Shown here: in pieces, positions 21,423 to 53,056 of the stretch
Layout of the letters: every line of letters begins with the position of its first letter
Position numbering within the stretch: position 1 is the first letter of the stretch
NCBI GenBank assembly: GCA_000934665.2
Contig: JYFJ02002311.1
Location: 1-59,321 of the forward strand
Length of the DNA: 59,321 nt
From: Catajapyx aquilonaris
Lineage: Eukaryota
Reading direction: 5' to 3'
The notes under the pieces: generated by a model
Told to the model about the DNA's origin: nothing
Database searches by the model: none
The model's input: the letters and a program-made list of their open reading frames with translations, nothing else
Position numbers and translations under genes: made by a program

Positions 21423-24723
<3,301 letters not shown>

Positions 24724-25110: not shown

Positions 25111-25571
25111 GCTGGTAGAGCTACTCGTAAATTAGAAGCTAAGCTAATTAATCATTCAAGAGCAGGAAGGCCTCCCAGGTAGCGCGTAGTAAATGCCAAT
25201 ATTTTGTTTACGCAATAATAAGGGCGGCAGCTTTCAAGTTCGCAGCCTCAAGGCGTGGGTGTGATTCGTCGTTGTTATATCACCATTGACTCATGTAGAG
25301 ACATTTCGGCCGCTGCAAAATGTGGCTGGCACTTCCTCATGCGGTCGGCACTTCCTCATGCGATGCGGCCATTCAAGTTGGTCGTCTATTGGCGAACTGC
25401 AGAGTAGCTATTATTCACAATCAGAATAACGTGATTGCATGAGTCATGAACCAGTTATTTTATTAGCACTTGTTGGGATTCGGTAATAAAATTTTGAATT
25501 GCTGCGACAGAAGCTTCCATTTAACACTCTGGTTATAACAGCTGACAATAGGTACATAGCACCGTTTGGAT

Positions 25572-27978
<2,407 letters not shown>

Positions 27979-28700: not shown

Positions 28701-29073
28701 TCATCTCTATTTGTAATGCTTCATTTTTATTGTAATTTTATACTTCGGGTGAAAATTTAGGTACTAATATACTAATTAATTTTTAGTTGGTTTTAGCTCT
28801 CTCATGCTGAATTTCAACAAAGTTTGCAGAGCTACTTTGAGGTGATTGACGCACTTAAATTGCCTTTCCTCCCCGGGGCCGCGGGTCTGCTGAGCAGACC
28901 GACCTTGAAGCGGGAACAGCCGCCCGAACGCGCCCTGCAAGGTCGATCCAAGATGGCTTCCATGGGACAGTGAACCCTCTCTCTCGTCTCCTCCGTCTCC
29001 TTTCCCTCCTTCCCCTTGGTCGGACACTACCTCGTCGCCTCGTCGGCCACACCAGCACCCCCGGAGGTGCCCG

Positions 29074-32000: not shown

Positions 32001-32476
32001 TTCCCAAATCCCCACATTTCTTGACGGGCCACACGTCCATGCCAGCTACAGCCGACTGGTGGCAAAGGCACTCACCCACACAGCATTGGTGTTGGTTGAG
32101 TTTGCAGGCAGCGATATTGGCATGTCCCACATGGATGAGTTCAAGATTGCAGTTTCTCTCTTGGCTGATTTGTCACCAGCCTATGAACAGGTGTATGCAA
32201 GAGTGGGTGAGTCGCTTGTGGCCGAGCTTCACAATTCAGCTTTCGTGTTTAACAGTTGACTCTTAATTTTAAATGCTTGTGGTCTGCATTCCAATATTTG
32301 CAGGTGAGCCCTGCAGTTTGAAGCATCTTTGCCGACATTCAATCAGATCCAGCTTCAAAGCAAGCCTGCAGGCAATGCAAGTCAAGGAAGCCATCCAGGA
32401 ACTGAAAATCCCGCACGAGCTAGGCCAGTACCTCATGTACTCCGAGCTGGACGCCGTCGCATTCATGCCGGAGTAA
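29074..32476 (+). CDS. Ankyrin repeat and SOCS box protein, ASB3-like, copy 1
   Basis: N-terminus MHFSSS..GVVASRGDAQLL..DAADAKGWQPVHKAAHNG; several ANK exons; SOCS box PCSLKHLCRHSIR..IQELKIPHELGQYLMY in the last exon. One intron uses a GC donor (GAAG|gcgagt at 29614). Confidence 0.9.
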
Positions 32477-33353
32477 GAATTGCCGCCAAACTCCTATAAC
32501 AAATTCTCTTGTGTTCTTATTGAATCTACGTTTCTGTGATAATGATGTGTGACAAATAAGTATTCAATTGTTGTTTTGTAAAACATTTACATAATTTACA
32601 GTGTAATGTTCGCTCAACGCTATGGTTGCATTGTTTCAAGTACCTCTGGAATTTTTATAATACAAATGTTGCTGTGATCATTATTACCATGTAAAATGTA
32701 TTTGGTGTATATAAAAACTTTACGTGAAGAATTAATTGAATGTCAAGGAAGCCGCGCATTTTCATTTGCTCTCTTCACGCCTTATCATTCGCAAAGATGG
32801 ATACAGTTTTATATTGAAACCAAATGTAAACTCGTCCCCACCTTTATTTTGAGCGATATAGGACTACACCTTACCATAATAATATGAATGAATTAATATG
32901 TTTATTATACCCAGAAAATGCCTGAAAAATTATTCAGATGACAGCAGCCATATTGGGCGCATTCTGTTGCCCGTTGAATCGCAGCTACTTCTAAAGTGCT
33001 ACTAACTGCAAGTAGCACCTACTACTTTTCCATTCCGTGGCTGTAATGACATGCCTTTTTGCATGATTCTGTACACAACCACGAAGCCCAATCAATCAGG
33101 CTCTCTAGTGCATTGCAAGCATTGTTCTGAAGCAATGTGTCTGTTCAGGAGGTTCAGGAATAGCTGTCAGCAGTTGCGCCCGTAACTGCTCGGCTACATT
33201 CGACCTCCAGAACACATGCAAAATGGCGCCGGTTCCAGGCGGAAGAGGGACCCCTTCGAGAACGTCACTCTGTCCTGTGCTCGTGTAGTACGACATCCAT
33301 GACCTGCCGGCCGCTGTAATAATGAACACTTCCTATTGCATGCGGCGACCCTG

Positions 33354-36300
33354 ATGGAGTTCAGCGAGGTGTACCCGGACATGATGTCCCCCGTGTCCAG
33401 GGCGTGCACAGACGGAGACCACCGCACTCTGAGGGCCCTGCTCAGGCGTGGTTATCCGGCAGACACCATGGACAACAGGGGGTGGCAGCCCCTGCACTGC
33501 GCTGCCTCATCCTTGCATCCAGAGTGCCTGGGGATGCTTCTCCTCAAGGGTAACTGAAAGGCTCATTAACGAATAAGGTTAAACTTATGTTGGAGTATGG
33601 CCATGATTGTTTGGAAGGCAGCAACTAGTTATGTTGTGCAGCGTTTTTTATCGTACATGTGGTTTTTCAGGTGGCGTTAATGTGAACTGGCAGGCACACG
33701 ATGGCATGACGCCGCTGCTTTTAGCCTGCAGTCGTTCAGATGGACCCGGAAGCCATATGCTGAAGTACAAAATTGTTCAAATTCTACTCGAAAATAAGGC
33801 TGACGTCAACATTCCTGCCAATTGCCGAGTGACACCCTTGCACAAAGGTGATTGTGTTGATGGGATGCTTTTAGAGCAGTGGTTCCCAATGTCTTTTTAC
33901 TCATGTGCCGAAAATTCTGAAGGCATCCCTAACTTTACACTATATTACTTATTGCGAATAGCCATAGGGAACATTTGATAGTGAAAAGTAAAATATCAAA
34001 TGGAATTGCATTACATTTCAACCAGCATTATGACTCGTAAAATTATAAATAAAAATAAATTCCACACGAAGGGAGACTGTGATGTTAAATTTTTTTTGCG
34101 GCACCCCTACATGATGTCCGGTGCACCCTAGTTGGGAACCACTGTTTTAGAGAGTATCCTGTAATATGTGGATATTTTTACAGCTATTGAAACCAACCAT
34201 ATTGAAGTTGCAAAGCGCTTGCTGAAAAGTGGTGCCGTACCTGATGTAAAGGACTGGAATGGATGGACTCCATTGCACTTTGCTGCTATGAAGGTGTGTG
34301 GCAGTTGATAACTTTGCATAATTTTGTTATTTACGTCCATTTCTACTTTTCCCTGCAGGATGACGTCCCGATGGTAAAGCTGTTGATGAGATATGGTGCC
34401 AATATCAATGTTGGTGATGATAGTGACCGCAGCCCCCTCTTTTTTGCTACTGATTCAAATGCACATGGAGCAATGAGGGTCTTGTTGCAACAGGAAGGTG
34501 TAGACGTGAACATGAGGTAATGGAGTGGGCCTACCGTGGATGACATGTAAAAAGATTTGAGAAAAACCTCCCCTTCATTAACTAATAACAAAATTTCTTT
34601 TCAGTACATCGGTTGGAGAGACTCCACTAATGATTGCGACCAAGAAGGGATCAATGACATCGATCAAACTGTTGCTTAAACATGGTGCAGATCCAAATGC
34701 TGAGTGCTCAAGCTATCCTCAGTCCCTGGCCATTCATTATGCTGTGGAATATCATCATGTTGAGTACGTTATGAACTTCTAATGATTATCACATGTTATA
34801 AATGGGAAAAATTGTGATCATTTTCAGCAGCTTGTCAGACCATTTTCATTAGCCCCCATTGACGGCAGGGTAACATAGTTTCATATTCCGTTTTGAGATG
34901 AGTTTGAAACTCACAGGAAATGCAGTACATAACATTGCCCTCTTTCCTATGCTGGAACCGTTGTTATGCTTTGTTACATGGAGGGTTCTCATCAGATATC
35001 TGCACATGACCTCATTTCTCCCATTGTGATAAAATCTCAGCATTACAAGTAGTATCATTGCCTAATTGCCGATGCTCTACTAGTTTCCTCTACTAAAGAG
35101 CATGGGAGAAGATTTGTGTACTTGCTTTTTATTTGTACCGTTGTGGCCTGACCAGTCACTAGACTGACTAGGGGATCCATTGCAATGGTCGTACGAGATG
35201 ACCAGGTGAATGTACCTGGTCATCTCTGGCAACCCCAGCTTGGGAACATGCCTGATTGATTGTGACTTTGTGAATAATGATGTAGCCTGCTCTTGCAGTG
35301 CCACATCCAGGATACAGAAGTTATGACTACTACTTTTGTTACAGAATTCTGGATCTGCTCTTGAAGTGTACCAGTAAAGCCGCACTAGAAAAAGCGTGCG
35401 ACATATCGTTGTGCAGTCACACGCCAAACCCACTTATCTTGGCCATTAGTGTGGGCAAGTACGTAAATGATTAACTCTACAATTGATACCTTTAACCCTC
35501 AAAATTGTGACTTGATCTGTGTTTGTTTAACTCAGTGGTTCCCAACCGAGATCCCATGGACATCATGTAGGGGTGCTGCAAAAAAAAACTGCATATCATA
35601 TCTACGAGGGCCGTACTAAAATGATTTACAATTTATTTGTTTGCCACAAATACAGTGCCCGTACAGGTCGGCAGATAGTCACATATTATAGATAGAATCC
35701 TCCTGGAGCTGAATACACAGAAGTTATGGGTGTGAAACCTCTCCGTGCCCTCCAGGAATCATTATTAGGAGGTTCGGCGCACCCCCTCCAGGACAACTGC
35801 TTACAGTCAACAATGTCCTTGACATTGCATCAGCGAAGGAGTTTTTTTCATGGATCTGAACAGGTGAAAGTCACGGGACCAAGCACCAGGTGTGGAAGTA
35901 CCCAAACCCAGATTCATGAAAAAAACCCTTTCGAGGCCACTGTTGACAGTTGTTGATTGTGCACAGTTTTCTGGTCGTGGGTGCGTCTCACCTCCAAAAA
36001 GTGATTCCTGGAGGCCCTGGAGAGGTTGACACACCTGTGGTGGTAGTGCATTCTTCTCCAGGAGGATTCTATCTATAATGTGTGACCATCTGCCGACCTG
36101 TACAGGGACTGTATTTGTGGCAAAAAAAAAGAAATTGTAAATCATTTTAGTCCGCTCCTCGTAGTTTCCCGCTGTGATGCATTGCAAAAATTAAAATATA
36201 AATTGAGGTTGTTATAATAATTTTATATAATACGTGTCATAATACTGGTTAAAATGTACAAGGCAACTCTATTAACTATTTCACTTTTTATTATGAAAAA

Positions 36301-37932
36301 ATATTGCGTATGATTATATTTGCAAGTTAGGGGCCTTCAGAATTTTAGGTGTGCCTTGGGGTGTCAAGAGAAAAAAGGTTAGGAACCACTGGTTTAACTC
36401 GAGTTTAACATTGCACGTCATATATCCCACTAGCAATTTTTGATGAGGTCTGACGGACAGTGAGATCCACCATTTACTTGCTTGTCAGATCAGTTTATCA
36501 CTTGCAGCGTAGAATGTGTGAAGTTGCTGATCAAAGCTGGAGTTCAACCCAACCACTGCTACGAATATTCTCTTTTTCCACCCTGGGGGAATGAGTACTA
36601 TGACACAGCTCTGGGTGCTGTTTTCCATATGACATCACCCAAACAAGAAGAGATGCTAGCAATTTTACTGCAGGAAGGTTGGTGCCCTGTGACCTTAATC
36701 GTCTCATCATTTAATACTGATGAAAAACCACTTCCAGGCGTAGAAGTGAATGTGCCACAGGGTAATGTTCGTGCTCCTTTGACGAGTTTGGCATCAACTC
36801 TTCACAAGGATTTAACAGATAGCAAGGCAGAACGTTTCTTCACTATGCTGCTGGAGAAAGGAGTAGATGTAGATTACCAGAGAAGGTTAGTGATGAACAG
36901 GGGTGTTACTGGTTTCCAGTATTCGTTGTCTTTGAGGTGTGTAGAAGTAAATACTGATTCTCTTCCTGTTTGTTAATCTATTCTTGCAGTGATACGGACT
37001 TTGGAGGTCCAGATGCCATTCTTCATTCTTCATATTGGAGGCCAGGATTTTTTCCAGTTTTACTGAGGCACAGCACGTTCACAGCTTCTGATATCCTTCG
37101 TTTTTGGTGTTGCTACTTTCACCGACACTTGACTCCTCGCATGCACCAATATGGCCTCGACATATTTTCACGCGTTGCTGCCAGCACTCTGATTCTGATT
37201 TCTCTATCTGGAAGTACAATTCGAAGGAGTGTGCTTGACAAAATAATTCTTTCATATGAAGAAAATTATTATAGGAATGTCCAAGTCATAAAGATGTGCC
37301 AGAAAATTCGCCAAATTGCAGGTATTGTAACTTGTGGCATGCTCTTAGTTAATGCAGAACAGATTATGGAAATGGTGCTGTCAAGTCACACCTACTTCTG
37401 TAGGTTGTAGTAGAATGATTCAGTGTAATTTGTTGTTTGCATTGTGTTCCGATGTCCATGTCTAGATAATCAAGTGACTTTTAAAATTGAATGTGAACTT
37501 ATATAGGGTGTGGCTGGTCCAAATAAATTCCTATTGAGCAAGTGAATAAAGGTATATACTTTCAATTAAGATGATTTTACGTAATGAAATAATCATGCAT
37601 TCCCCATACCGTGAGGGGTACGGAGACTTTTGGCCAACCCTGTTGTTTTTGTACTAATTTGAATGAAGATACCTCTCTCAAGATAAATGTAGTAATGGAG
37701 GTAGACGAATGTTATTTACTGTATATTACGTTTTTATTTCACAGACCAACCTTGCAGCTTAAAGAACTTGTCTCGCCACTGGATCCGGACAGCAATGGCA
37801 AAGCATGGGAGCCTAAGTATTGGTGCTGTAGAGACTTTGGGACTCCCGCAGGCGTTACGTGATTATATCCTTTATCAGAATGATCGAGTGTTGGAAGGAA
37901 ATGTGGCACTCATTCCTTCCGAATGTCTGTGA
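33354..37932 (+). CDS. ASB3: Ankyrin repeat and SOCS box protein, ASB3-like, copy 2
   Basis: MEFSEVYPDMMSPVSRACTDGDHRTLRALLRRGYPADTMDNRGWQPLH closely follows the recalled ASB3 N-terminus (MDFTEAYAD..DNRGWMPIH). Same exon layout as copy 1. Last exon 37745-37932 encodes SOCS box PCSLKNLSRHWIR..LGLPQALRDYILY. Confidence 0.88.
33877..34144. mobile_element. hAT (Buster/Charlie-like) MITE in an intron of ASB copy 2
   Basis: TIRs CAGTGGTTCCCAA / TTGGGAACCACTG. 8-bp TSD TTTTAGAG at 33869-33876 and 34145-34152, with a central TA. Confidence 0.9.
35533..36391. mobile_element. hAT (Buster/Charlie-like) MITE, same family as 33877-34144 but inverted, interrupted by a nested element
   Basis: TIRs CAGTGGTTCCCAACC / GGTTAGGAACCACTG. 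8-bp TSD GTTTAACT at 35525-35532 and 36392-36399. The subterminal GGACATCATGTAGGGGTGC is the reverse complement of the sequence at ~34101-34119. Confidence 0.9.
35605..36161. mobile_element. Tc1/mariner-type fold-back MITE nested in the hAT MITE
   Basis: TA|CGAGG ... CCTCG|TA ends (TA TSD at 35603-35604 and 36162-36163). Imperfect inverted arms at ~35605-35858 and ~35910-36161 around a spacer of about 50 bp. No transposase. Confidence 0.88.
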
Positions 37933-38981
37933 ATTTATGTGAAATTATATGCCAAGTATTTGAAGGAAGAGTTGTTGATCTCACAATGGAACCTTCTAAA
38001 AATCCTGTTTGCAGAAAAAATCAAGACTAATATTGCAGGTGATTCCTTGCGGTGTGTATAGTCTGGTGACAAAATCTGATTCAACCACTGTCAAAAGAAG
38101 AAGATTAAGGTAAAAAAGTCTGCAAATTTTCTTCCAACCTATTCAAAGGGTGCTAGTAGCTGAGTATATTTTTCTGAATAAGCTTCAATCCCCCATCCTT
38201 GTCCCAATTTCCAGAGAGTCCGTGCCTCAGGGCAGATTCCATCCTGAGAGAGAGAGCTGACTAGGAGCCCACAAAACGCAGATCATGATTGTGTCTCCAA
38301 CAGCTCCTCTCGGGACTGACTTCAAACATATCAGGCAATGAGTTAGCAAGCCTTTTCACTTGTCTCATGCACCTATGACAGTGAGCAGCAAATTTTAGAA
38401 CTGGAGTGCAACACATACCATTAGCTTTAGTTGATCTTGTAACTTGCATTTTTGTTCGATTGCCTTGGAATTTCCTGGTTAGTATTATGTTAATATTCAG
38501 AAGAGAAACACGTGGTGGCACTATCAGTAAGTAACTTGTACCTGCTGTGAGAAAATCCATACTTATACCGTATGTGATAACAGCACTTATGCCTGTTTTG
38601 AGCTTTTAGCTGTTTTTGCACTTACGCTGGTACATTTTGGGTTACAAACATGTGTTCAAATTGTTGTGAGAGATGTATGGTGATAAATAGATCATCCAAG
38701 GCACTGGGAATTTTTGTTGCGTCTGTCGCAAAGAATCTCATATTATGCTTCTATCATGTTTTCATTGCCAGTTGGTCACAATACGTCTGTCAACTCCTGT
38801 GGGCATGACCTGGTCAACAAGTATTTTTAAAGTATGAAGTCGAGATATAAACAATAAACAATTGTACTTTATGGATCTTCTTTCTGCCTTAAATAGAATT
38901 ACCTTTCCAACTTTGTCAAAGGAAGTGCATGCATAATATAAATAATTTATTGACAAAACAAACCCAAGAGTTTCCTTGAAA

Positions 38982-41900
38982 TCAGAAGAAGAAAAAGAAC
39001 TTCCTTTTGCGACGTCTGGTGTATATTTTCTTCTCTCCTGAAATGAATAATGTTAGGGAATTATTTGACTGAGAACCATTGGTTTATAGGGTGGTACTCT
39101 GCTATGTGGGCAGTGTACCACCCTGCTGAGCAACTAAGGATCAAAAAAGAACTGACGTTTTGGAACCTTCACAGATGATGTCCTGTATGCCATTCCAAAA
39201 ATGATGGCAACTATGAACATTGGCACAAATCCAATGCTGATTGCCATGGGAACAGCAGGGTAAGGCATGGGGGGCTCCTTGATGAATATGGCAAATGATC
39301 CGGAGACGTTGCTCCTAGATGCCAGGTCGGACATGGATATTTTGACGTGATACATGCCGGATCCTTTCAAAACCATGTACAAGTCGTCAGGGTCCCACAC
39401 GTTGTCAAACTTGGACCTCGTAAACAATGCAGAGAAGTTGTTCAGAGCCTGCCTGGATTTCATGCCTGTTTGGAATGCATTCGAATCACTTCCAGGGGAT
39501 AGGTCCCAGCAGGTTTCTAGTTAAGTTTGCAGCACTGATTGTTTGGAGGTTAGTCATTTCACCAAACATTACATAAAGCATAGAATTTCAAGTGTCCCAA
39601 TGCTTACTGTAAAACTCAATATCTTGCCGGCTGTTCACTTCTTCCACCATGACGTAGTAAGGTCCTGTCATCAAAATGGAATCCCTCCAGTCGTCTTCTA
39701 GGAATGTAACCACCTTAGCATTCACTGGCAGTTCCATAATCACCGCCTGCAATGGGGAGGCAAGCGTTTGGGGTTAATTCATCTCACTGAAGTTTTTTTC
39801 CAGTGCATACCTTTTCTCTGCAATCGCTGTACTGCACACTCTCACTCAGCTTCATCCACTCCTCACATCCACATTCTTCTCGTGTCTTTTTGCCATGACA
39901 GAGTTTAAAGACTCCTAGCAGCAGAATTTGTTGGGGGCACAATTTGGGATAAAATTACGGTTGGTTTATCTCGCACCGTTTTACATGTAGGTGTAGTGAT
40001 AGGCATGTACGAAAGTGACTAGAAACAGTTACGTGATCAATACCATTCTAGAAAATAATATGAGCTAATCACTTGTTCTGGATTTACGGTATACCCTAAT
40101 ATCATGTAACCAAATATTATGAGATAGTGTTCTTGAATTCCTTTTAGTAGTACTGTTCCTACTTACCAACTTCTTTGGGCAAGTATGAAGTTTTATGCAC
40201 GTACACTGTGGGGTCAGCATTGTATACATGATTCGACATGTGAAGTCCTATGCCCAAGTGTGATGGAGGACGGTAATTCACCTGCAGTGGGGCAAAGTAA
40301 GAGAGTTGATTTTATTGTAATAATACTCATTTAAGTAGAGCCAATGAGTCTTTTGTAAGTTCAAAATAATATGAGGCTACTCACAGGAAGGAGTTGAAAA
40401 ACAGGTGCTACTCTATTTTTAACTGGAAGAGCTTCACCCGCTTCGAGGTATTCTTCCTTGGTGAAATTCCGAGGTACAGTGTAGTTGAAGGCAATGTTTC
40501 TGCGTGGGTTGGAATCAGTGTGTACTATAATGGTTGTGCTTCTAGTCTTGCAGCGGAGTGAGCTGAAGGGAAGGCGAAAAACCACGCTGCTCATAGCCGT
40601 GCGATGAGAATTACTGGTCAGCCTCACTGACAGGATATCCTTCCCATTTGTTCGATGCAACTTGCAACGCACATCCAGGACTTTGGGATTGCTGTTGCTT
40701 ACTTCAATCATTGATGTTGCCCACTTAATTGGACGCTCTATAAATATGAATGGTAGGCAATGTGAATGTTCAGTGTGAGCATAATAATTTATCACAAATG
40801 TAAGGTGTGTGCTTGTCAGTCAATGTGCAGGTAATTACTTACTGTCCATTGTCATTGCTAACATGGAGCCTTCGAACATATCCTGAATGTCGGCATAGAA
40901 AAACTTCCTCTTCATCCAGCCAATGGGATACAGGTTAAAATGGCAGTCAGCCTCACTTTTGTACCATGCAAACTGAAATATTTCCTAATTAAGTCATTGA
41001 ACAACAATGCAAAATTTTGGGTACTATAATGAGCCACTTACCTCCTCAGGAGTGAAATATTCGCTGTTGCCATTCTTCACGTAAGCACCCAAGTTGTAAA
41101 ACTCCCACATGTTCATGTTCACCTCCACTGGAAATAAGATGTCTTTGAGGAGTGGGGCAGCTGTAAGAGCTTCGGCTTTTACACCCTCAACCTTGGTTAT
41201 GAGGAAACTCATTCCTCCTTTGACGTATAGGGTCTTGCCTAGGTCAGTGTCGGAAAATACTCCTGTGCGGAAATAAAAATTTAATGAATGTTCCCCAATT
41301 TGCCGAAAATGTATAATTACCTGTGCCAGTCAGTTGTATTTCTGCAGCATACAGCTTGCCCTCAACTGTAGTGAGCTTCAACCCATTTTCCTTTGGTAGG
41401 TCACTAGTTTCATCAACTATAAAAGGAGTAATGACGTGACACCAAATGATGTGAGTGAATCCTTCCTCGTACTGGTAGTGATCCTCTAGCACCTTCTTGA
41501 TCACGCATTGGCCACCATTCCTGTAATTGGTGAATTGTCTCATAGAAACATTTCCAAAGGATGTGAGAATGGGCTCACCTCTGACGTACAGCCAATCCAA
41601 CATCATTTGGTGTAAAGTCATGGCCAGGATTACGTGGGATTTGACTGCCAAGTTCTGTACCTATGTCAAACTCATGGAGAATGACATGCATGTAGTGAAT
41701 GAACTGTACAAGAAGAGGATTCCTTATCACATATTCTGTGTTATCCTGAAAGTAAGTGGAAGCTACATCAGTTTTCACCTGTCCGAACTTCACGTGAGGG
41801 ATCGCAAACTGTAATGTTTGGTGCACCTGAACTCACCACTATATTATGTGGTATCATAGTGTAGCACATGCTTGATGAATTACTGTTAGTTTCATTGCAG

Positions 41901-44347
41901 AAGCCAACCAGGAAGCTCATATCATTTTCAGTGCGAACCACAGTGTACAAGCCTTGGGTCTCGATGCCATTGTCCTTCAAAGAAGCTTCCATGTATCGCT
42001 TCCTTGCTGCACTCCCTAACACCACATTGCCCATCTCTGAGATGCAAGTGAACATTTGGTCTGCGTCCCCAAAGGCGCAATCTCTCAGGAAGTCGCCCTC
42101 CTTTGACATTTGATGAGACTCCTTTGGCTGTTCCATGAATGACCATGACACATACAGCTGCCAAGGAAAGACTCTTGAGTGAAGGGTGTCACACACAGTA
42201 TGTATGACGCAAGCTCACATACTCTATCTCCAAGAATGTAGAGGTCATTAGTGCTTCGATGGCGCACCACTTTTCTCAGGTTGAAATTATATGCATACAG
42301 AACTGTCACATTGCGTTCAAGCCGATCTTGAATGGAGTACTTGCAGGTGGGGGAATACTTGCAGATGGTGGTATCTCTCCAGCTCTGCCTGGATTGACTC
42401 TCTCCGCAGTTGTTGGGTCGGAGCGAAATGTAATGACTCTCATTGCCCTGAAGCGACATGTTGTCAGAACCCTACGTCTGGGCACAATTGAGGAGGCTTA
42501 CCTTGTGGTAAAATACCCAAAAGACTATTCGATGTGGGTTGTACACTGCTGTTTCTATTCCAGGTAGGAAGTCCTTCAGGTCAAAAGGCAGAAGGGTGTT
42601 TTTGTCGTTATTGTCCACCAAGACATCCCACTCCAAATATGGTATGGTTGCGTAAGCTACAATTGTGTGCCTTTGCGTGGTAGGAATAACCACAACGACA
42701 GTGTCATCTGAAACCAGAGGTAATGATCCAGTGTGATTGTTAAATTGTGATTTCGCAACAAGTGCTTACCAAATGAGTTGCCCTGGGAAGTATAGCACAG
42801 GTTGGAGTATGTGAAATGGACATTGGTAGATTCATTTTCCTGCAAATAATACCATGGAGTTTACTTACTGTAGCTAATGTAATATTGGCATTAACCACAT
42901 AATATATTTCAAAAGTAACTTCACCTTGAAGCAACCTGAAGAACTGGAATTTTGGCATGGATTCACCAGGGTGAAGTTTAATAAATTGTCATATTCAGTA
43001 CTGTGAACTCTGCAGGGTCCGTCTAAGGTTTTATTTAAAGCATTGCTCACTAGTACGCCTTTGGTGGTTGCAATGAGCATGCGCCAATTGGTCATTGCGA
43101 CGTCTAAAATCACAGTATCCTCACAATCTGAAGAGAGACATGGATGTGACACTTGACCAACAGAAGATGTAGCACGGACACTCACTTTTCAGATTCCTGC
43201 AAATGTGGGGTTTGAAGTCGTACCATGTGTCGAAGTACCCTTCTGCATATCGATAGAGGTACACACCAGTGAGTATTTTCTTGCCGAATCCAAAAAGTAT
43301 GACTGGAAAAGGGATGTGAAGATGCTGTGTTCATTGTTACCTGCTTGCTCCTGCTGGAACTTACCTTGATCATGGTAACAAGGATGTGGAATGGACACCA
43401 AGTTTGTGATTGGACTATCAATCACTGCCTTTCCCTTTGTGATGCTACCCAACTTCCAGCGGTTCAGTAACTCTTTCAAAAGTGAAATGTAATAAGTTAG
43501 TGATGGGCAGTTTTGTAAGCCAGGTCTTTCCATGAGACGAGTCACATACCTGATGTGAGATCAACAAGAACTCCATGACACTCCGCAGCTCCAGTGCCCC
43601 TTGTGAGCTCAACCAATACTTTCCATTGGTTTAAAATGGTTGAGTGGAAGTTTGTGCCCACGAGCTTCCTGTAAGTAAGATTGTTACGCATGCATTCATT
43701 TTAGAAACACTCATCACTCATGTGAACATTATTTTATAGGTGTCGTCTGATTCTTGGCCACCGCCTCCACATGAATGCTGCCCCACTTCAACTCAACCTA
43801 CTGCCTCGGGATGGTCACTTTCCAGTAGGGTCTCTCTCCATGCAAGCCCAGCTCAAAAGTGAACGACTCACTCCAGGTTAAGTTGTATATCATGATGGAC
43901 GGCTGGTTCCCTTTCATGTTGTAGTAGTGAGCAAGGGTTTTCCTCAAGGCCCATGTGTCAGATTCGGCAGATTCGGTGGAATACAACTGGCTGCGGAGCT
44001 CCTGTAAGTCCATGCATGATATTTTACGATAGAGTGTACCAAGAGGATCCGGCACCATTTTATTGTCTACTTATGATATTACCAATTGATCTGAATTCAT
44101 GAAGAGCAAGTTGTTCACTTCCTTCCCTTCACTCAAGTAGAACTCCTGTCTATCTGTGACCACCTGAATACCTGGTGGAAGACATATTATGCAACATCAT
44201 ACTCTCCAGCCCCATGTTCAAAAAGGATAACATGTACCCACTGATGGTTTTCCAAAACTTGTCATCATTGGGGTAAATGGCTGGTGGAGCAACAGACGTG
44301 ATGCCATGAATCGTCATCAGCAGTGCCAATAAGGTAGTGTACAACAT
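38982..44347 (-). CDS. CATSPERB: Cation channel sperm-associated auxiliary subunit beta (CatSper-beta)-like, multi-exon, apparently full length
   Basis: Signal peptide at 44347, then collinear blocks matching recalled CATSPERB: GNQPSIMIYNLTWSESFTFELGLHGERPYWKVTIPR; ILDVAMTNWRMLIATTKGVLVS; YATIPYLEW; VNYRPPSHLGIGLHMSNHVYNADP (~40282-40210); GVFKLCHGKKTREECGCEEWMKLSESVQYSDCREK (~39914-39811); GPYYVMVEEVNSR; VWDPDDLYMVLKGSGMYHVKI; FAIFIKEPPMPYP followed by one TM helix. The last exon (to 38982) is inferred; an unspliced stop lies at 39134. Minus-strand AATAAA at 38946-38951. Confidence 0.88.
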
Positions 44348-45517
44348 GGCGCTTCTGTACTTGCTACGATTAATTGTTACATCAGGGCATGGATTTCATT
44401 ATGCAACCATTAATTTATAAACTCTCACCAGCAGCTATATTATTTTTCAACAATAGCCAGAATCTGATGAATGGAATAAAACACTGAATATTGTCAACAA
44501 CAACGTTGGTGGTGGGCTACTGTGAGAGAAGTAGCATATGTATTTTCTAACATAAATTAGAGTATGTTTCATTGTTCAATTACATGGCTGGGAAACATTA
44601 TTTACCACAATCTCCTAGAGGATGGTATCAACAGGGATGCTTCAGTTCAACCTTAGAAGTGATGAATATATTCTACACGGTGGGAAAAAAAGTGCTGGAG
44701 TAATAAGCTACTAAACAACAAGAAGCCAAGGTACACAATTTCTAATGGAACGACCAGGGAACGACTATCCAAGGTGATTTGTGAAGAATCAACTGTTGCC
44801 TGGCAACAACTACTTGTCCTTTGTGATGTCATGTATATGGGTTGATGCATTTATTGCCTAGTCTGCTGCACAATGAAAATAATGAGGTGTCCTGGAAGTT
44901 TAGTTAGTTTAGTCGTACATTGCAAAAATAATAATGTATGTCCATTATGTCAAATGTCAATTATTCATGTTATGCGCAAGTAGTTGTCAAACCCTATGCA
45001 ATTGTATTGACTTGTAACTACAGTAGAATAAAGAGGATGCCATTTTAATCAAGTGGTTTATGCCTGTGAATGTGATGGCACAAGCCCAAAGCATGTGATG
45101 AGACCAACACAACTTCTCATAGAATCCCCTTTCAGCTTGATTGGAAGGGTGAAAAATAAATTGAGCGAATTCTATACTTGCGGGAATGCTGATGACATGA
45201 AATAGTTCTCACAGCTTCAAGCTGTCACCAGCAGACAGGATAAAATGAAAGGAAGTCATAACATTTGAAGAACTTTTATTTCTCATCTATACAGCACCCA
45301 TATTAACAAGAAATGCATATTTTTATGCTGCACATCATAACTATTCTGGTCTACAATTTCTCACAGTCTATATTTTGTTCTACCGAGAGATATATGATTT
45401 TCTTCCCAAATTGTTACACACTGAAGAATCACTCTATATGTTATTTACACTATCTTTACATCTATCAACACACGAATACATTTTCTTTTCGCGTGTTTCC
45501 TTTGTCTTTGGGTCGCC

Positions 45518-47821
45518 TTAATTAATTTTCGTGACCTGTGAAGTATCACGTCGGCTTTTACACCAACGTGTGAAAGGTCGAATTGTCAGAAAATAAATCA
45601 ATTCGGCCACACTCACGAGGCTAAATCCAACGAAGAGGCCCACAATTCCTCCAAAACCAGCTGAAAAATTACAAATTTAACTGAGACCAATATTCTAGAC
45701 ATAAGTGTCGTGTTTACTTACAGATAAATCTGACTGCGGTAAACTGCAAGTCTCGTGTGTACTGTACGAATATCAAATCTTTAAAGAAGACTCGCAGTAA
45801 CACCAGATCTCTTCTGCACAAATAAGGAATGATAAAATGCGGATATTTACTTAAAATTAAAATTTGTTAAAAATATCTTACTCATTGACATCCTGCATAT
45901 CCTCCAAGTCTGAGATGTACATTGGGAAGTTGGCGCTGGTAGCTTCTGGAGTGTATGTCACTTCGTCACAGCTAGGTTTGCACTTACATGTCATGCTACT
46001 GACAGTGATAGTTTCTTTGTCCAACATGTCAGAACTAATAGTAATATTTGATTTGCCTTGAATGGACACAAATTTTTCTGCAAAATATATTAGTTAAATT
46101 AATGTGACCATCGCGTACAATCGTGCAGTGCAATTGCTTACTTGCGTTTCTGTTAATGCACATCGTTCCATTATAATCGCAAAGTTTGGCTTCCTCTGCA
46201 AAATTGTCAGTTGCAGTAAATAATTTTCAAATGATATATCATTTAGTTCAGCTTACATACCGAGGTTTGCGTACAGGTACGGAACACACCCGCAAGTTCT
46301 TCTCATGGACTCCACCTGACATTCCAAGAAGCAGTTGGCATAACTGTAGGTCGAGTAAAATCTTAACTTAAATTCCGATGGAAGTGAACATCCTCTCTTG
46401 TAGCTCGGAGTCTTCTCAACGTCACTTGAACTGTCGATCATGACTGGTCTGACTGGCACAAAGACTTCTTTTCCCGAGTTGACCAAGAACGACTTGGCGG
46501 CCACATCTGGAAAATTCCACGGGCTGTGAATCAGCACCTGTAAAAATAATATTAACTACAGTACTTAACAATCGAAATTATATTTCTATATGCAATATGC
46601 GACCTTCCATACCTTAAACCCATCAATAAAATCATTTGCTGCAAAATACTGATCCAACTCTGGATCCAGCATAATCGTGATCCCCATGTTTGGTCCTGCC
46701 CCGCTCACCACTCTGGGAACAAACTCCTTTTCATCAATGCTGTGTGATCCGGCTGTTGGAGCTTCACCAACACCATCGTACAAATAGTCTATGCTGAAAC
46801 AACAGACCATTATGCCAACAAACCTCAGACACCAACAGTCATATTCAACCTGGCGCCTGCATCACTTGGTTTGTCCTTCATTGGCACAGAGTTGAACGAC
46901 CAACAATACCCTTGGTTTGTGAGCCTCAATGTGAGAAGATCTGAGCAGTTGTATGGTTTACCAGCCCACCAACATCTTATGGCCATGTCATTCAAAGGGT
47001 GGATCACCTGTGATATGAAAAGCAGGACATATCGTGACAGAGGGCAGTCACATACTACAAACTGTTCACATACAGATTTCATCAGGTCGTCCACATACTC
47101 CTTTTGCTCGTTCACAATCTTCTCAACCATTTTGTCATGAGCTGGTTCATAGAATTTAACCGCACCTACTTCAGACATCAGGTGTATAACTTTGAACACA
47201 TCAGCTTCAGAATAATTCGACCACCTGAGGAAAGTTAGCGTGTATACATTTCCATTAACAGCAACAATAGTGTAGCTACTCACGGCGATTGCTTGACGGC
47301 CCTCATGACATTGTCGCGTCTTGCCTGGTTGATGTTGCACACTGTCACTGCCGGAAACGGTATCTCCCAAATTGGCACCGCTGTCGATCTGATACTAATT
47401 GCCGTCTGCGATTCTAGATACGATTCAAACATTCTAGCCAGCATCCACAACGCTCCTGTTACGGCTAAGCAGCAAACCAGAAACCACATAACTCTGAAAG
47501 TAACACTATCTATAGCCTTAATTAGATATATGGCATTAAACTGACTCTATACCTTTCCCAAAAGAAGTTACTCGAATCGGTGCTGTACTTGATGCCATGA
47601 AGAGACGCATTTTCAGTGTATTCCCTGAGACTCTGAACTGCACACTCCATAATATTTGGTTGTCTCTTAACACCACTGATGTCCTCACCATTGTTTCTAG
47701 GCTGTGGATCCATCCTCATGTTGCTCGTTTCTTTGTCCCACGAATACATGGGAGCACCAATCTTCCTGGCCCATGCTGAAGGCATAGATGGCCTGATGTA
47801 GTTTGACCTTTCACGACGCAT
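45518..47821 (-). CDS. DEG/ENaC sodium channel, pickpocket-like
   Basis: NASLHGIKY (HG motif), TM1 WFLVCCLAVTGALWML, IPFPAVTVCNIN, TNQGYCWSFN, YSYANCFLEC..CGCVPY, CKCKPSCDE, and TM2 FGGIVGLFVGFSLVSVAELIYF. An extra 5' exon near 47880-47930 is possible. Confidence 0.93.
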
Positions 47822-48160
47822 AGTTGCTGAAACGAACTGTATTTTCACCGATTGTTTAGTTACAAAGAGACAAAACTTACTGACAATGTTGTCCTTGTGA
47901 TGGTTGAACAGGTAGTCCTTCCTCGACTATCTAAATGTTCGATTGTGATGGTAGGAGGGACCTTATTGAGCGTCCAAATCATGCATGCCAATGAATAAAA
48001 CCCTTTGCGTGTGTAGGACACACAAAGAAAACTTAAATAATAAAGCTCGCTAGGATTGTGTAAGTAGGAAGTGCTTCAAGTAGTTTTTTAAATATGTGGC
48101 AGACTAAGTAGCATAAATATTTATTGCAAGGCGCATAAAAATAATATTTACATTCACAAG

Positions 48161-51100
48161 CTATTTCTTTCTGTCTTTTATTTGTGTCATATTAGCTCCT
48201 CTTCCAACATTAGCAGCAGGAATGGCAGCTTTTTCTTGTGGAATATGCGTAGTAGTGTTGGGCTTCATGGGCACAATTGCCTTGAGTTTAGGTCTTCTCC
48301 GTCTTTGCACGATGGCTACCACAATCTGACAAAAGAATGTCAAACATAGCATAATATGTTGCAACAAAAAACAGGCCACATTTTACTAGCTTTCAATCAA
48401 CATCGATCAAAATGACATAGTGTGCCCATACATGCTGAATTATCGTGACAAACAGTCAATATTACCTAGGTGTTATTGGGAATTTCCCAATCAATAGAGC
48501 ACGACCAGAATAGGGTCGATATAGCTTCAATTTTGGGTAACTCACGCAAATGTCAGCTAAACAATGGGTCAACACTTTCAACAATGTAAACAATACAAAT
48601 GTTTCTGACATCAATGCCATTTTCTGGTTGAATGTGTAAAATGATCTTCAGTTGAACCAGTGATTCGCACATAATGGTGCATAAAATGAGTTTTTAATCA
48701 CACTTATTGGCAGTGTACTGCACAATATTACCTCCGATCCCATAATTGCAAATGCTGATATGGTTCCGATAATGAGGAGCAGAAAGACAGGCGTGCTCTG
48801 CTGCATGTCCACGGGTATCCAGACGTTTCCATCGCACTTGGGAGGACCAGGGAAATACTTGGAGTAAAGGCGGTTGAGTATTCCAGTCATGTGGAGTTTC
48901 ACAATACTACAAGATGTAATGAAAACAAAAGGTTCCATTTCCATTGTTAGACTTTGCCAGAATCACATGGAGATATGCATACTTGTAGTTGAGGATGTGC
49001 CTGTAAGGAGACTTTTTCCTCAAACCATAGGCCAGTCCATTTGGAAGGTAGTGCTTTGGTATGGGTATGACACTGCAAGTTATGCTTATTGGTAGATCCC
49101 TGCTCAGTATGGTCCTGGCAGCCAATTCGTCAGCTAAGAACGCATAATGACCCTGCAGATAAACAAGTCCATTAGGCTACTGTATTGTGTAACAATTTCT
49201 TACAAACCTAAAGCCTCTTCTACAGTAGCGGTAGATGTGTTCCTACCTGAACAACCTTTTGAAACCCTTGTTGCAAGTTGTTTACAACATTGTCGGGTCT
49301 TGCAAGAACCAAGTCATGGTACAGGCTGTAGAACTCAGTTCCTTCTTCCGCAAGCTAGAAGCATTTGCAGTGGGTGCATGGAATCAAAAAAATGAACTCC
49401 CAAAAATATTCAGACTGCACAACATATCAGACATGTTCCGACTCACCTCAAAAACAAGGCTAGCTGCATCATTCGATTCAAATCCCAGGTTCCACCCGGC
49501 CATGTCAAGCAGGTCTCTCATTTCTGCGAACGGCATGGTGGTCACCTCCGTGGCCAGGTGGGAAATCAGCTGTGCCGAGTAGCTGGTGTAGCCCACCAGA
49601 AAGAGTATGTAGGCCATCCAAAACACAATCCGACCTGGAGTGTTGCTGGGCTCCACCCATGAACCTTTACAAGTGAAACATCACATGTTGACATTTTTAA
49701 TGTGGAGGATCCACGTAAGTTATACCACTGTTTGGAGCAACCTAAAGACTTGGTACCATTTCAAATATTCGCCACAATCATGTATCATGCAACACAAGTA
49801 TTCAATCCTACTTTGCTCGGAGACGATTACATGACAGTCTGCAAGAAAAGAATGTGCCATATAGGTAAGGGAGAGGAACGGTGGCAAGTGATAATTTTAA
49901 AAAAGATTACACATACACACACAATTCATAGAACAGCCAAGTGTCTCATTCCGGTACTGAAAGAGAGTTATGAATCATCCACCATGACTCCTGCATGTTG
50001 TGGATTAGTAACGTGAATTTGAGGAATAATTTCACCGTCTTTCTCACAAGGATATTAATATTCAACCACTGGGTTTCCGGTGCTTCATATATTTTATTTG
50101 TGTATCACAGATTTTCTTTTAAAGGAACTTGCTAACATAGCAAACTACTACTGGTAGGCACACAACCAAAAGTATGTATTCACATTCCTGACTGGGAGAT
50201 AAAGAGATACTGCTTGGATGCCATGTGATGTTAGGGGACACGGGGATCCTCTCGCTCTTGAGGTTCGCATCCTTAGTGCCGGATTTCAAAATTGGACATG
50301 GTGTACTTGGGGATGGTCATCTCGTTCCTGAAGGACGTCTTGTCAATCCTTGACTGGGGACTTCCGGTGAACTGCAGCCAAGCCTTCCTGCATGCCAGAT
50401 AAACAGATAATAATATTAGAAAAATTGCGCACGATGTACTGTAACAGTGGCATGGAAACTTGGGTACTGACTTCCCAACACCAGCCATCCATTCAATAAT
50501 GTTAACAATGGATGGCTAGCATCAGCCTAGCTTAAAGCAGTCTTCCATTACACGTACATGTTCTGCACTTTGGTTGGTACACCTTCCAGGAGCCCATGGA
50601 CAGTCCCTTTCTCGGTGTTCTTGCACCAGCCCTTCAGGCCTAGCTCCTTCCCCTTCTGCTGGGTGTGCTTGCGGAAAAACACCCCTGGAAAAACAAGAAC
50701 GGACGTGTTAGCAACACATCGTACCCAACAGTTGTGCTGTGTACACATGTGGCCAGACTCTGTCGGCACATGATTCGACACAGTCAACGTCAAGAGCTAA
50801 TGTCAACGTACATCCAATAATGAACTTGCGGAACTTCCCACTGTGTCACATTTCCATGGAGATCTCCCGCAACAATAGCAGTAAACAATGTTGCAGCCCA
50901 TGGAAATAGGTTAAGTGGAAGGCTCCATAAGTGCGTTCTCAGATGTCCGTTGACCATGCCCTGATGGGTACTACGGCCATACCGTCCTCAACGGCCCTGC
51001 ACTGCCAGTGCATACAATGTGAACATGAGTGCAAATAATATTCCATGGATTGGATATACTTGCCCTGCACCCTTCCAAAGACTTCGAACTCAACAGAGAC

Positions 51101-53056
51101 GAGCTTCGTCCCTGCCATCCCTTCCCGACTGTCTTCCGAGGGCCCTTGCGAGGTCTGCTCCTGTGCTTCAGCGGACATGCAGCCTCCCTCTTCCAGGTTC
51201 GAACAACGACTGGTTGTCCCTCCTTTTGTTGTTGGTGTCACCGTCGTTGTTGTGGCGACGCAGGGTCGGCAACAGGAGGCCAACAACGCCCAGGAAATGA
51301 TCAACAACCTTCTGAGCCGCATTCGGACCGCTGCTCTTCGGTTCACAGGAACGGTTCGGTTCGCGGTTCGGAATAAGGAACGAGCGCGACTTTCGAATGT
51401 GACATCATTCGTTCTTCATTAATTGCGGCGTTATTTTATTTAATTACAATTTGAGCATGGCCTCCAGTAAATGCATGAGAGCCCATAACTCCTTCTGGTT
51501 TGTTTATAAATGATAGGCTACTATAAATAGTTGGCCGTTGATCTAGCTATACATAGCTGAAAGTGCTATTGATCAACATACTGTGGGACCTTGCACAGCT
51601 GGGCATGTCCCCATCATGACACGCATAAAAAGGAGCGTCACGCTGAAGTTTATTCCCGTATTAGTGACGTACAAGCAATAAATCAAAGACCAATCGATTT
51701 TAAATACTATATTTCTTTTGAGATATTAATCATACCTTGCTGGCAAATAGCTGCGTAGACAACAAGGCACGAGTCTGCTGTTCCGATACTTTCAAGGCCA
51801 CAGTTCCACAACTGCGACACCCTGAGGGCCACCACCAACAATGGGATGCTGCACAGAAGGGCCATCCAGAGAGGGAAACTGAATGGGCTTATGTATTCCT
51901 TCAGCTTTAGTTCCCTCGCAAACTCTCGCTTCACAAATAATACTTGGCTGGAAATAATATTGTTTAAAATATTGCGCTTTAATAGTGTGATTAATAATAA
52001 TGACCTGCTGCTAACTAGAGGTAGAGTGAAGTCAATAATTTTGCCTCTTCGTGGGTCCATTGTCAATTCATTTGTTGTGACTTCGACTTCACCTCGTTCC
52101 AAACTACCAACTGTACCGGTCCATTTCTGAGTTTTGGCATCCAGTGACCCGTATATGTCGCCTTCCGATCTGATCAAGTCTGTTCTGCAATGCAACTTTA
52201 CTGTAATATTTTCCTTTCTCTGTATATGTAAAATACTCACGTAAAATTCATCATGGATTCCAGGGCGAGCCAAACCTCTCCGAAGAATCCTCCGATTATT
52301 CTGTACTTCCCATTGTGTCCTTCAATTTCCTCCAGTTCACACCAGTGTTTGTAGTTCTGAAAATTCAACAATGTATTACTGTGAGGTGATACATTGTTGT
52401 GTACTATATACATACAAGTCCAATGGCCTTCATGACAAGTCCATCCAGATTACTTCTTTCTTCGTATTTGTGAATTCTTCTTTTAACAATGGCTATTTGT
52501 CCTGAATCGTTCCACTTGCCCAAATGTATTTTTCGGAGCGGGTAGGTCATACCTACTTTATATATTTCATATATCTGCAAAACGTATTTGTGAAGGTCAA
52601 GTGCGTGGACAAAATCAGTTGACAAATATTTACCTCAATGTCGTGATTCATGTCCACCACACCGTAGACAATGTCGTTATCAATTAGAGTTTCTAATCCC
52701 TTCAAAACCTCTATTAAATCAGAGTACTGAGATTTACCAACAAGAATGAGCCAGAAAAATCCACCATGGAAGCCTCCAGATTCTGAAACCTTAATTTGAC
52801 GACATGACCCCTTTAGTAAATTAAACTCTAAATATGTTGTGCAAATCACGTGTAATTAATCCCTGCTCACATTTTTCAAAAACCGATTGTCCCAGTCATT
52901 GTTGTTGAAGATAAATACTTTGAGGCTGTAGAAACTGTTCCACGCTCCAGAAGCGAGGTCATCTGGTTCCCAAAAGCGAACTTTGACTGCATGAGATATG
53001 GCAAGGAAAGCTGTTCGCAATTTAACTCCAAAAAATTCCGCTGACATCGCCGTGCC
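48161..53056 (-). CDS. Ionotropic receptor, multi-exon (IR75/IR64a-like); N-terminus not resolved
   Basis: GFFGEVWLALESMMNF; YGSLD...WTGTVGSLERGEVE..MDPRR..IDFTLP (S1 with conserved Arg); SPFSFPLWMALL (M1); ICQQG|; PGRIVFWMAYILFLVGYTSYSAQLISHL (M2); KKSPYRHILNY..KLHMTGILNRL; PVFLLLIIG (M3); last exon 48325-48161. Confidence 0.9.
50273..51322 (-). CDS. Acyp: Acylphosphatase, 3 exons, nested in the IR intron; possible long form with N-terminal hydrophobic extension (core starts at the ATG at ~51118)
   Basis: MAGTKLVSVEFEVFGRVQG|VFFRKHTQQKGKELGLKGWCKNTEKGTVHGLLEG..NM|KAWLQFTGSPQSRIDKTSF..FEIRH*, containing the G-x-VQGV-x-FR signature and the catalytic Asn (GW-x-x-N). Confidence 0.93.

Follow-up and report, generated by a model that had tools for sequence, protein, structure and literature searches.

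An apparently intact CATSPERB-like gene in an arthropod-like genome

Structure of the locus

A CATSPERB-like gene lies on the minus strand of the window (the whole 59,321-nt stretch of DNA analysed), in the company of carboxylesterase, peroxidase and iGluR-like sequences. An Rfam scan of the window returned a tRNA only. The spliced gene model comprises 20 exons with a 3588-nt CDS of 1195 codons, free of internal stops, and introns of 54-252 nt (median 70) that are GT-AG throughout. The ATG at 44347 is the first past an in-frame upstream stop, and the stop codon occupies 39134-39136. GC content is 0.452 in exons (GC3 0.524) versus 0.391 in introns. The initial annotation had described a multi-exon gene at 38982..44347; the multi-exon structure holds and the upper coordinate is the start codon, but the lower one falls in presumed 3' UTR, beyond the stop. 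Frame-breaking lesions in the spliced mRNA, which it had proposed looking for, number zero, the 1195-codon frame is open and the gene is apparently intact. The features are as follows.

39134..44347, minus strand: CATSPERB-like gene, ATG-to-stop coding span (20-exon gene model)
44242..44347, minus strand: exon 1, start codon and hydrophobic signal-like leader, ~aa 1-20 (Kyte-Doolittle 19-residue window 1.64 at aa 6-24)
44083..44171, minus strand: exon 2 (gene model)
43802..44001, minus strand: exon 3, CATSPERB_1st match at ~43804-43962 (PF21541, 33.0 bits)
41579..43668, minus strand: exons 4-12, middle ectodomain, presumed beta-propeller region (gene model, without family match)
43668-43550, 43472-43365, 43302-43186, 43127-42925, minus strand: exons 4-7 (gene model)
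42839-42770, 42707-42502, 42447-42223, 42157-41837, 41745-41579, minus strand: exons 8-12 (gene model)
41321..41520, minus strand: exon 13, CATSPERB head domain, first part (PF22830, 18.9 bits)
41042..41262, minus strand: exon 14, CATSPERB head domain, second part (PF22830, 29.7 bits)
40843..40984, minus strand: exon 15 (gene model)
40385..40737, minus strand: exon 16, weak CATSPERB Ig-like match at ~40529-40717 (PF22831, 15.0 bits)
40167..40281, minus strand: exon 17, CATSPERB_C, NYRPPSH block (PF15149 and mouse CATSPERB alignment)
39811..39914, minus strand: exon 18, CATSPERB_C, cysteine block (PF15149 and mouse CATSPERB alignment)
39608..39746, minus strand: exon 19, CATSPERB_C (PF15149, 16.6 bits)
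39134..39516, minus strand: exon 20, end of CATSPERB_C, TM helix, 16-residue tail and stop (PF15149 and mouse CATSPERB alignment)
~39185-39256, minus strand: TM helix, aa 1156-1179 (hydropathy peak 2.45)
38946..38951, minus strand: AATAAA polyadenylation-signal-like hexamer, 183 nt past the stop (sequence match only)

The exon 1/2 and 12/13 junctions, those of exon 15 and the 3' end of the gene are predicted from DNA. The exon 1 donor is weak (TCA/GTGGGT, the slash marking the junction) and the junctions of exon 2 were picked by hand, while exon 15 has a second in-frame acceptor 12 nt downstream, at 40972. In-frame alternatives also exist at the exon 12/13 junction, where the raw ORF gains 8 bits on the head profile. 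The consensus junction was kept because a 1-nt insertion allele at 41539, inside the modelled intron, would frameshift any alternative reading through that position. The first automatic gene model was discarded at three places, namely a read-through of exon 1, three spurious mini-exons at ~40095-39867 and a stop that had been spliced out. An alternative last exon from the same model, ending at 38982 and using a weak GTCAGT donor, is less likely.

Predicted topology and family membership

By hydropathy analysis, the predicted protein is hydrophobic over two segments only, aa 6-24 and aa 1154-1181. The predicted topology is type-I single-pass: a leader precedes a large ectodomain, and the one TM helix, at the C-terminal end, is followed by a short tail. 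This bears out the initial annotation, which had reported a signal-like leader, large ectodomain and single C-terminal TM helix, and the four motif blocks it had quoted are all present, in the order it gave, across exons 17-20. Exon 17 carries NYRPPSHLGI...N-x-Y-x-ADP, exon 18 FK-x-C...TREEC-x-C...SDCREK, exon 19 PY-x-V-x-V-x-EVN, and exon 20 KGS...H...F-x-I..E-x-P-x-P-Y-P followed by the TM helix. The protein contains 25 Cys and 13 N-x-S/T sequons. AlphaFold modelling of exon 20 alone gave an unusable model (mean pLDDT 45.8, pTM 0.21) whose sole well-formed element is a helix at exon residues 96-112, at the TM position.

The Pfam search for CATSPERB, a check put forward by the initial annotation, was positive for both exon translations (searched at E<=10) and 17 ORF pieces (E<=1). 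CATSPERB families were matched by 8 of the 17 sense-strand ORF pieces (E 2.6e-11 to 0.037), at increasing profile coordinates; other CatSper-subunit families matched none of these pieces at E<=1. With the exon translations, CATSPERB families were the only matches and were collinear, running from 1st through head on two exons and a weak Ig-like match to C on four exons. Five exon matches are each above the curated Pfam cut-off of 27 bits for these families unaided. CATSPERB_1st (PF21541) matches exon 3 at 33.0 bits (E 6e-8, profile 32-84 of 120), or 33.8 bits on the ORF piece. The head family (PF22830) matches exon 13 at 18.9 bits (profile 45-106), rising to 26.9 bits on the longer raw ORF, and exon 14 at 29.7 bits (E 5.8e-7, profile 111-168 of 179), the two matches adjoining. 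CATSPERB_C (PF15149) matches exon 17 at 31.0 bits (profile 39-69), exon 18 at 39.5 bits (profile 80-112), exon 19 at 16.6 bits (profile 130-156) and exon 20 at 34.7 bits (profile 162-245). The Ig-like family (PF22831) matches exon 16 at 15.0 bits (E 0.029), under the cut-off of 27, and the middle ectodomain of exons 4-12 (~500 residues) has no CATSPERB Pfam match.

A search of the PDB aligned three of eight exon pieces to mouse CATSPERB (7eeb_E), in gene order. Exon 17 aligns to residues 865-909 (E 5.1e-6), exon 18 to 908-944 (E 1.7e-3) and exon 20 to 1010-1081 (E 2.8e-4); the exon 18 alignment takes in three cysteines and the SDC-x-EK motif. The other five pieces gave no CATSPERB match in this search; PDB matches were lacking for pieces of the N-terminal, middle, head and Ig-like regions, the exon 11 piece among them. 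Word-indexed protein searches returned 110 candidates with exon 20, none at E<=0.001, and seven with the exon 17 piece, none at E<=10. Exhaustive HMMER with exon 20 gave six matches at E<=0.001, all repetitive FG-GAP, PKD, Big, fn3 or He_PIG proteins in which several weak stretches add up by chance, with no CATSPERB among them. CATSPERB relatives are absent from the protein searches with exons 20 and 17, and orthology is therefore drawn solely from the profiles and the mouse protein. The CATSPERB family matches of the ORF pieces exceed chance.

The mouse protein (PDB 7eeb chain E, also 9ubw chain E) has a like topology of leader, ~1150-residue ectodomain, one TM helix and short tail. It is similar in length (1109 aa vs 1195 aa here) and its Pfam domain order is identical. 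The C-terminal stem is collinear over mouse residues 865-1081 and has in common both the NYRPPSH and cysteine blocks and, just before the TM helix, P-x-P-(F/Y)-P. However, pairwise similarity is detectable over the last ~230 residues only.

A different member of the CatSper ancillary superfamily (beta/gamma/delta/epsilon-like), not a true beta orthologue, could also present much of this picture. CATSPERD, CATSPERE and CATSPERG share the single-pass architecture and a related C-terminal stem, and the nearest clusters in a language-model atlas mix their C-terminal families. For exon 20, the nearest cluster bearing a name is 'delta-like' (score 0.86, no more than a lead); 68% of its members carry CATSPERD-E_C and 29% carry CATSPERB_C. 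The Ig-like and middle regions are without a significant family match. Yet all CatSper-family Pfam matches are to CATSPERB families, with the 1st and head families included. Four CATSPERB families match, whereas those of delta, epsilon and gamma match none of the 20 exons at E<=10, and the pairwise PDB matches are to beta chains only. Among the canopy subunits, the head domain is known only from beta. A non-beta identity is very unlikely.

Selective constraint and origin of the locus

Polymorphism at the locus was assessed from contigs of three DNA runs, at one allele per contig, all from one sample that may be the assembly's own source. A further run with the same species label, X5, yielded no sequence over the gene. 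All three indels among these alleles are intronic (chance 0.03). SNPs number 10 in 3588 exonic nt (2.8/kb) vs 13 in 1626 intronic nt (8.0/kb; binomial p 0.010). Six of the exonic SNPs are synonymous and four non-synonymous, giving a pN/pS of ~0.18 (p 0.009), a value from small counts in one sample. Exons 4-12 hold seven of the ten, including all four amino-acid changes. These data indicate that the CATSPERB-like gene is under purifying selection.

They also bear on whether the gene was recently silenced or is never expressed, as a young pseudogene or an annotation mirage. Protein searches with exons 20 and 17 did not turn up its product, as such a reading would have it. Against this stand the open 3588-nt frame over 20 exons with consensus splice sites, the confinement of indels to introns and the pN/pS of 0.18, and silencing is highly improbable. 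The locus is very probably a real, functional CATSPERB-family gene.

CatSper is well known in deuterostomes and cnidarians, and a contaminating or misassembled scaffold from one of these groups would offer another source for the gene. The taxon signal of the neighbouring genes is weak. A peroxidase exon in the window has 42 matches, of which 16 are organism-named; 11 of these 16 are arthropods, at identities of only ~30-36%. A tree of this exon, built with 15 of the 16 organism-named matches (one of two Ranitomeya rows and the 26 unnamed matches were left out), has no supported clade and a long branch for the window's sequence. Clusters returned for the iGluR exon by the language-model atlas are predominantly arthropod. 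The iGluR-like gene flanking the CATSPERB-like gene has a sub-threshold IR75a-type match and, by its sequence, looks like a variant ionotropic receptor. The arthropod-like setting given in the initial annotation is weakly favoured by the peroxidase relatives, the iGluR clusters and the IR75a-type match, but the low peroxidase identity and the tree do not place the sequence.

The argument against contamination made in the same annotation, from a common intron style, fares better. GC content lies between 0.39 and 0.49 in each 3-kb bin of the window, and the neighbouring carboxylesterase gene model has a median intron of 60 nt vs 70 nt in the CATSPERB-like gene. Each of the three DNA runs has one contig over the entire 5.55-kb gene stretch, at depths of 22-37. 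No echinoderm, cnidarian or tunicate occurs among the 16 organism-named peroxidase relatives, and the adjoining gene resembling a variant ionotropic receptor also speaks against a foreign scaffold. Contamination is unlikely because the neighbouring genes have a common GC content and intron style, and a deuterostome or cnidarian origin of the scaffold is extremely improbable.

Possible roles and CatSper in arthropods

For steering and hyperactivation, the sperm of mammals and sea urchins rely on CatSper as the key route of Ca2+ entry, yet it has been lost many times. The best explanation of the locus is that it encodes an intact, selectively constrained CATSPERB (CatSper-beta) orthologue, predicted to be a type-I single-pass membrane glycoprotein. 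From the N-terminus this would comprise a signal leader, a '1st' domain, a large, poorly conserved middle region and a head domain. Next would come an Ig-like/stem region that includes the conserved cysteine block, then a single TM helix and a short tail in the cytoplasm. By homology its role would most likely be as in mouse, whose sperm flagellar membrane carries the CatSper1-4 pore topped by four large extracellular 'canopy' subunits, beta among them. As in mouse, it may be anchored to CATSPER4 via its TM helix, touch delta via its ectodomain, touch gamma as well and be required for complex assembly. According to a preprint, mouse beta is anchored to CATSPER4, contacts delta and gamma and forms a beta-beta dimer interface; when it is lost, the entire complex disappears and male mice are infertile (Oh et al. 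2026 preprint, PMC13484710).

The CATSPERB-like protein is fairly likely to form part of a retained CatSper channel. The pore and partner subunits would presumably be present in the same genome, with expression in male germ cells and assembly of the protein into a channel. CatSper-beta is described as the fastest-evolving subunit, with a dN/dS of 0.409, which the weak pairwise similarity observed here fits (Cai & Clapham 2008, PMC2572835). Sea urchin, sea squirt and Nematostella CatSper-beta, likened here by description, are likewise non-vertebrate and fast-evolving; unlike the present case, all four pore subunits are documented in these animals, none of which is a protostome (PMC2572835).

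Alternatively, the gene may be functional and constrained in a species that has lost the CatSper1-4 pore, its product perhaps being a glycoprotein of the cell surface or the sperm surface. Purifying selection shows that there is a function, not which one, and partial CatSper sets have been published, with two of four pore subunits in a butterfly and three of four in ostrich (Romero & Nishigaki 2019, PMC6660944). The window holds no pore gene, as neither Ion_trans nor any other CatSper family was found among 236 ORFs of >=70 aa outside the gene. However, pore genes are normally unlinked, so the lack of one within 59 kb carries little weight. The mouse subunits are mutually dependent, with no role of beta outside the complex reported in the available text of PMC13484710, and the four CatSpers and CatSper-beta have been lost together in lineages (Cai & Clapham 2008, PMC2572835). 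Such an orphan beta is unlikely, and membership of a CatSper channel is the preferred reading.

The CatSper complex was absent from the protostome genomes sampled by Cai & Clapham 2008 (PMC2572835), who also mention a CatSper4-like EST from the springtail Onychiurus arcticus. Arthropods have since been called 'heterogeneous' for CatSper (Romero & Nishigaki 2019, PMC6660944), and CatSper1 of the springtail Orchesella cincta, Lamellibrachia satsuma and Lingula anatina appears in Table 1 of a further report (PLoS Biol 2026, PMC13674862). The novelty suggested by the initial annotation was therefore overstated, with arthropod heterogeneity and the O. cincta gene already in print. The present species or its relatives may already be in the arthropod listing of PMC6660944. 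PMC11148248 and a 2025 bioRxiv channel survey contained nothing relevant to arthropod CatSper, and no functional study of CatSper in a protostome was found in the literature searched. A few arthropods are known to keep CatSper genes, and the CatSper-beta gene described here is interesting but not unprecedented. In the available text of the published reports found, the protostome CatSper genes are pore subunits, whereas this gene is a beta.

Practical value is limited until the other CatSper genes of the species are known, and the CATSPERB-like gene flags this species as a place to seek other members of the complex. If the whole complex is present, the species would be a protostome for studying CatSper function. 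Should the pore be missing, a canopy subunit with a role independent of CatSper would be implied. The protein would then be the first orphan CatSper canopy protein with its own function, which might be adhesion at the sperm surface or the scaffolding of another channel. Finding a beta subunit under constraint in an arthropod-like genome provides a new data point, suggesting that loss of CatSper within the group was patchy and not ancestral.

Gene model and family membership of the predicted product

The CATSPERB gene occupies the minus strand with 20 exons, numbered from the start codon, and introns of 54–252 nt (median 70 nt) that are all GT-AG in the spliced model. An automatic splice model contained three plain errors and was rebuilt by hand at those places. 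The resulting CDS of 3588 nt forms an open frame from ATG 44347, the first after an upstream stop, to TAA 39134–39136. The CatSper-beta motif blocks quoted in the initial annotation were all found, in stop-free stretches of the minus strand, across its three frames, from 44347 to 39134. The span then proposed, 38982 to 44347, is correct at its upper end, which is the ATG, whereas the lower end lies past the stop codon and in the presumed 3' UTR, as an AATAAA hexamer follows 183 nt beyond the stop.

Four points of the model are provisional: the weak donor of exon 1, the exon 12/13 junction, an alternative acceptor of exon 15 (12 nt), and a possible extra terminal exon reaching to 38982. Every alternative at these points keeps the frame. 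Alternative exon 12/13 models with an 8-bit Pfam advantage were set aside for the consensus junction, because a 1-nt insertion allele at 41539, inside modelled intron 12, would frameshift those reading through this position.

The predicted product carries a hydrophobic N-terminal leader, 25 cysteines, 13 N-glycosylation sequons, and one strongly hydrophobic helix (aa 1156–1179) followed by 16 residues. In a Pfam scan at E<=1, eight of 17 sense-strand ORF pieces matched CATSPERB families and none of the 17 matched a family of other CatSper subunits. Exact exon translations gave the same picture at E<=10.

Pfam matches by exon of the CATSPERB gene
Exon 3: CATSPERB_1st, 33.0 bits, profile 32–84
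Exon 13: CATSPERB_head, 18.9 bits, profile 45–106
Exon 14: CATSPERB_head, 29.7 bits, profile 111–168
Exon 16: CATSPERB_Ig-like, 15.0 bits (below the cut-off of 27), profile 40–103
Exon 17: CATSPERB_C, 31.0 bits, profile 39–69
Exon 18: CATSPERB_C, 39.5 bits, profile 80–112
Exon 19: CATSPERB_C, 16.6 bits, profile 130–156
Exon 20: CATSPERB_C, 34.7 bits, profile 162–245

Profile positions increase along the gene from exon 3 to exon 20. Five single-exon scores exceed the curated Pfam cut-off of 27 bits, with the Ig-like match below it, so that the HMM check is positive, exon by exon, for the CATSPERB-type gene first proposed. Among solved structures, three of eight exon pieces found a match, and this was to the mouse beta subunit only (CATSPERB, PDB 7eeb chain E). 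Exon 17 resembles mouse residues 865–909 (E 5.1e-6), exon 18 residues 908–944 (E 1.7e-3), and exon 20 residues 1010–1081 (E 2.8e-4), while the pieces with exons 3, 11, 13, 14, and 16 had no match among these structures. The middle ~500 residues remained unmatched throughout, in keeping with the published fast evolution of CatSper-beta, the fastest-evolving subunit examined by Cai & Clapham (2008, PMC2572835), with a dN/dS of 0.409. Database searches for relatives with exons 17 and 20 as queries retrieved no other CATSPERB sequence. The putative orthology is based on the per-exon profiles together with the alignments to the mouse chain.

Alleles and constraint

Polymorphism was read from three DNA runs of one sample, which may be the assembly's own source, with a single contig per run carrying the gene. 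Compared with the window over the 5.5 kb of 38900–44450, these contigs show 5, 9, and 15 differing letters, and they also differ among themselves; several alleles are therefore present in the sample, which is a heterozygous individual or a pool. The alleles resolved by the three runs differ across the gene at 23 SNP places and by three indels. All three indels are intronic (chance 0.03), and SNPs are sparser in exons, at 2.8/kb (10 in 3588 nt), than in introns, at 8.0/kb (13 in 1626 nt; p 0.010). Six exonic SNPs are synonymous and four non-synonymous, giving a pN/pS of ~0.18 (p 0.009 against neutrality), on low counts from a single sample. GC3 of the gene (0.524) is higher than intron GC (0.391). 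The polymorphism pattern agrees with the intact frame of 1195 codons and with the GC3 excess; the gene is under purifying selection and is no decaying relic. Its earlier description as apparently intact is upheld.

Genomic surroundings and host affinity

A Pfam sweep of the rest of the window took in every ORF of 70 aa or longer, 236 in number (26 + 210), with the 19 ORFs inside the gene span excluded. The matches point to ordinary animal genes, including ANKRD13, a GIT-type ArfGAP, a P450, and a heme peroxidase; among these 236 ORFs of the window there was no Ion_trans pore gene or second CatSper-family gene.

Other features of the window
2–613, plus: 203-residue open frame with a hydrophobic C-terminal stretch, open at the window start
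15694–16118, minus: two adjacent ORFs with a fibrinogen C-terminal globular domain (Pfam match)
19926–19998, minus: single tRNA gene (Rfam, 34.1 bits)
21376–24756 and 25444–27978, minus: two tandem type-B carboxylesterase genes (Pfam sweep)
28909–37929, plus: long ankyrin-repeat gene with a terminal SOCS box (ASB-like)
45881–47926, minus: DEG/ENaC (Pfam ASC) channel gene (Pfam sweep)
49387–52634, minus: iGluR-like gene (weak ligand-binding and channel matches)
50551–50796, minus: acylphosphatase-like ORF between exons of the iGluR-like gene

The frame at 2–613 has no Pfam match and is probably the final exon of a gene that extends beyond the window. The fibrinogen-domain match suggests a ficolin- or tachylectin-type lectin gene, and the cytochrome P450 gene has the tRNA gene close downstream. 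The second carboxylesterase model, of nine exons, encodes 560 aa that open with a signal-like segment and end in a hydrophobic C-terminus; the GESAGG-containing exons of the two carboxylesterase genes are closely alike. The ankyrin/SOCS-box gene converges on the CATSPERB 3' end. The DEG/ENaC gene lies directly upstream of the CATSPERB start, ~1.5 kb off on the same strand. Together with the weak ligand-binding and channel matches, a hit below threshold to the IR75a N-terminus (24.7 bits vs. 27) in an upstream exon suggests that the iGluR-like gene encodes a variant ionotropic receptor of chemosensory type.

Contamination or chimerism of the contig is unlikely, because GC is even across the window (0.39–0.49 per 3 kb) and the neighbouring carboxylesterase gene also has short introns (median 60 nt, against 70 nt in CATSPERB). 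The case made against contamination at the outset is supported. The description of the genome as arthropod-like is weakly supported. The peroxidase exon has 42 relatives, none of them close and none a self-match, at only ~30–36% identity. Sixteen have an organism name attached, and 11 of these are arthropods, the best two being from a copepod and a sea spider; the other five come from a nematode, a mollusc, a bryozoan, and frogs (two entries). A tree of 15 peroxidase matches gave no resolution. For the iGluR exon, the nearest clusters in a language-model atlas are marked 'commonest Arthropoda' in four of the best five rows, which is a lead only. As judged from these likenesses, the host is tentatively read as a protostome, probably an arthropod or at least an ecdysozoan, of a lineage poorly represented in protein collections.

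Likely role and CatSper retention in arthropods

The mouse channel has four single-pass canopy subunits over its CatSper1–4 pore, among them beta, whose TM helix is anchored to CATSPER4 and which contacts delta and gamma and provides the beta-beta interface of channel dimers (Oh et al. 2026 preprint, PMC13484710). Sperm in which beta or its delta contact is disrupted lose the complex as a whole, and infertility results (PMC13484710). Because beta is reported to be retained or lost jointly with the four pore subunits (Cai & Clapham 2008, PMC2572835), the most economical reading is that this animal would keep a CatSper channel with the present protein as its beta canopy subunit, which we consider fairly likely. 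An orphan beta subunit with a new role goes against this joint pattern and appears improbable, with a partial precedent in species that retain some of the pore subunits but not all (Romero & Nishigaki 2019, PMC6660944).

The CatSper complex was absent from the protostome genomes sampled by Cai & Clapham (2008, PMC2572835), who mention a CatSper4-like springtail EST. Arthropods were later described as heterogeneous for CatSper, with Brachiopoda among the keepers (PMC6660944), and a 2026 PLoS Biology table (PMC13674862) includes CatSper1 from the springtail Orchesella cincta, an annelid tube worm, and Lingula. A study on a mud crab reports that CatSper was sought in its genome and not found. In the portions covered of the CatSper literature on arthropods, protostomes, springtails, and crustaceans, we found no description of an arthropod beta subunit (the species-level figure and supplementary tables of PMC6660944 lie outside this scope) and no functional CatSper study in a protostome. 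The gene is apparently a new, unannotated member of a known family. As patchy CatSper retention in the host's group is already documented, the find is less surprising than first held, and the genome of this species is worth searching for further CatSper genes.
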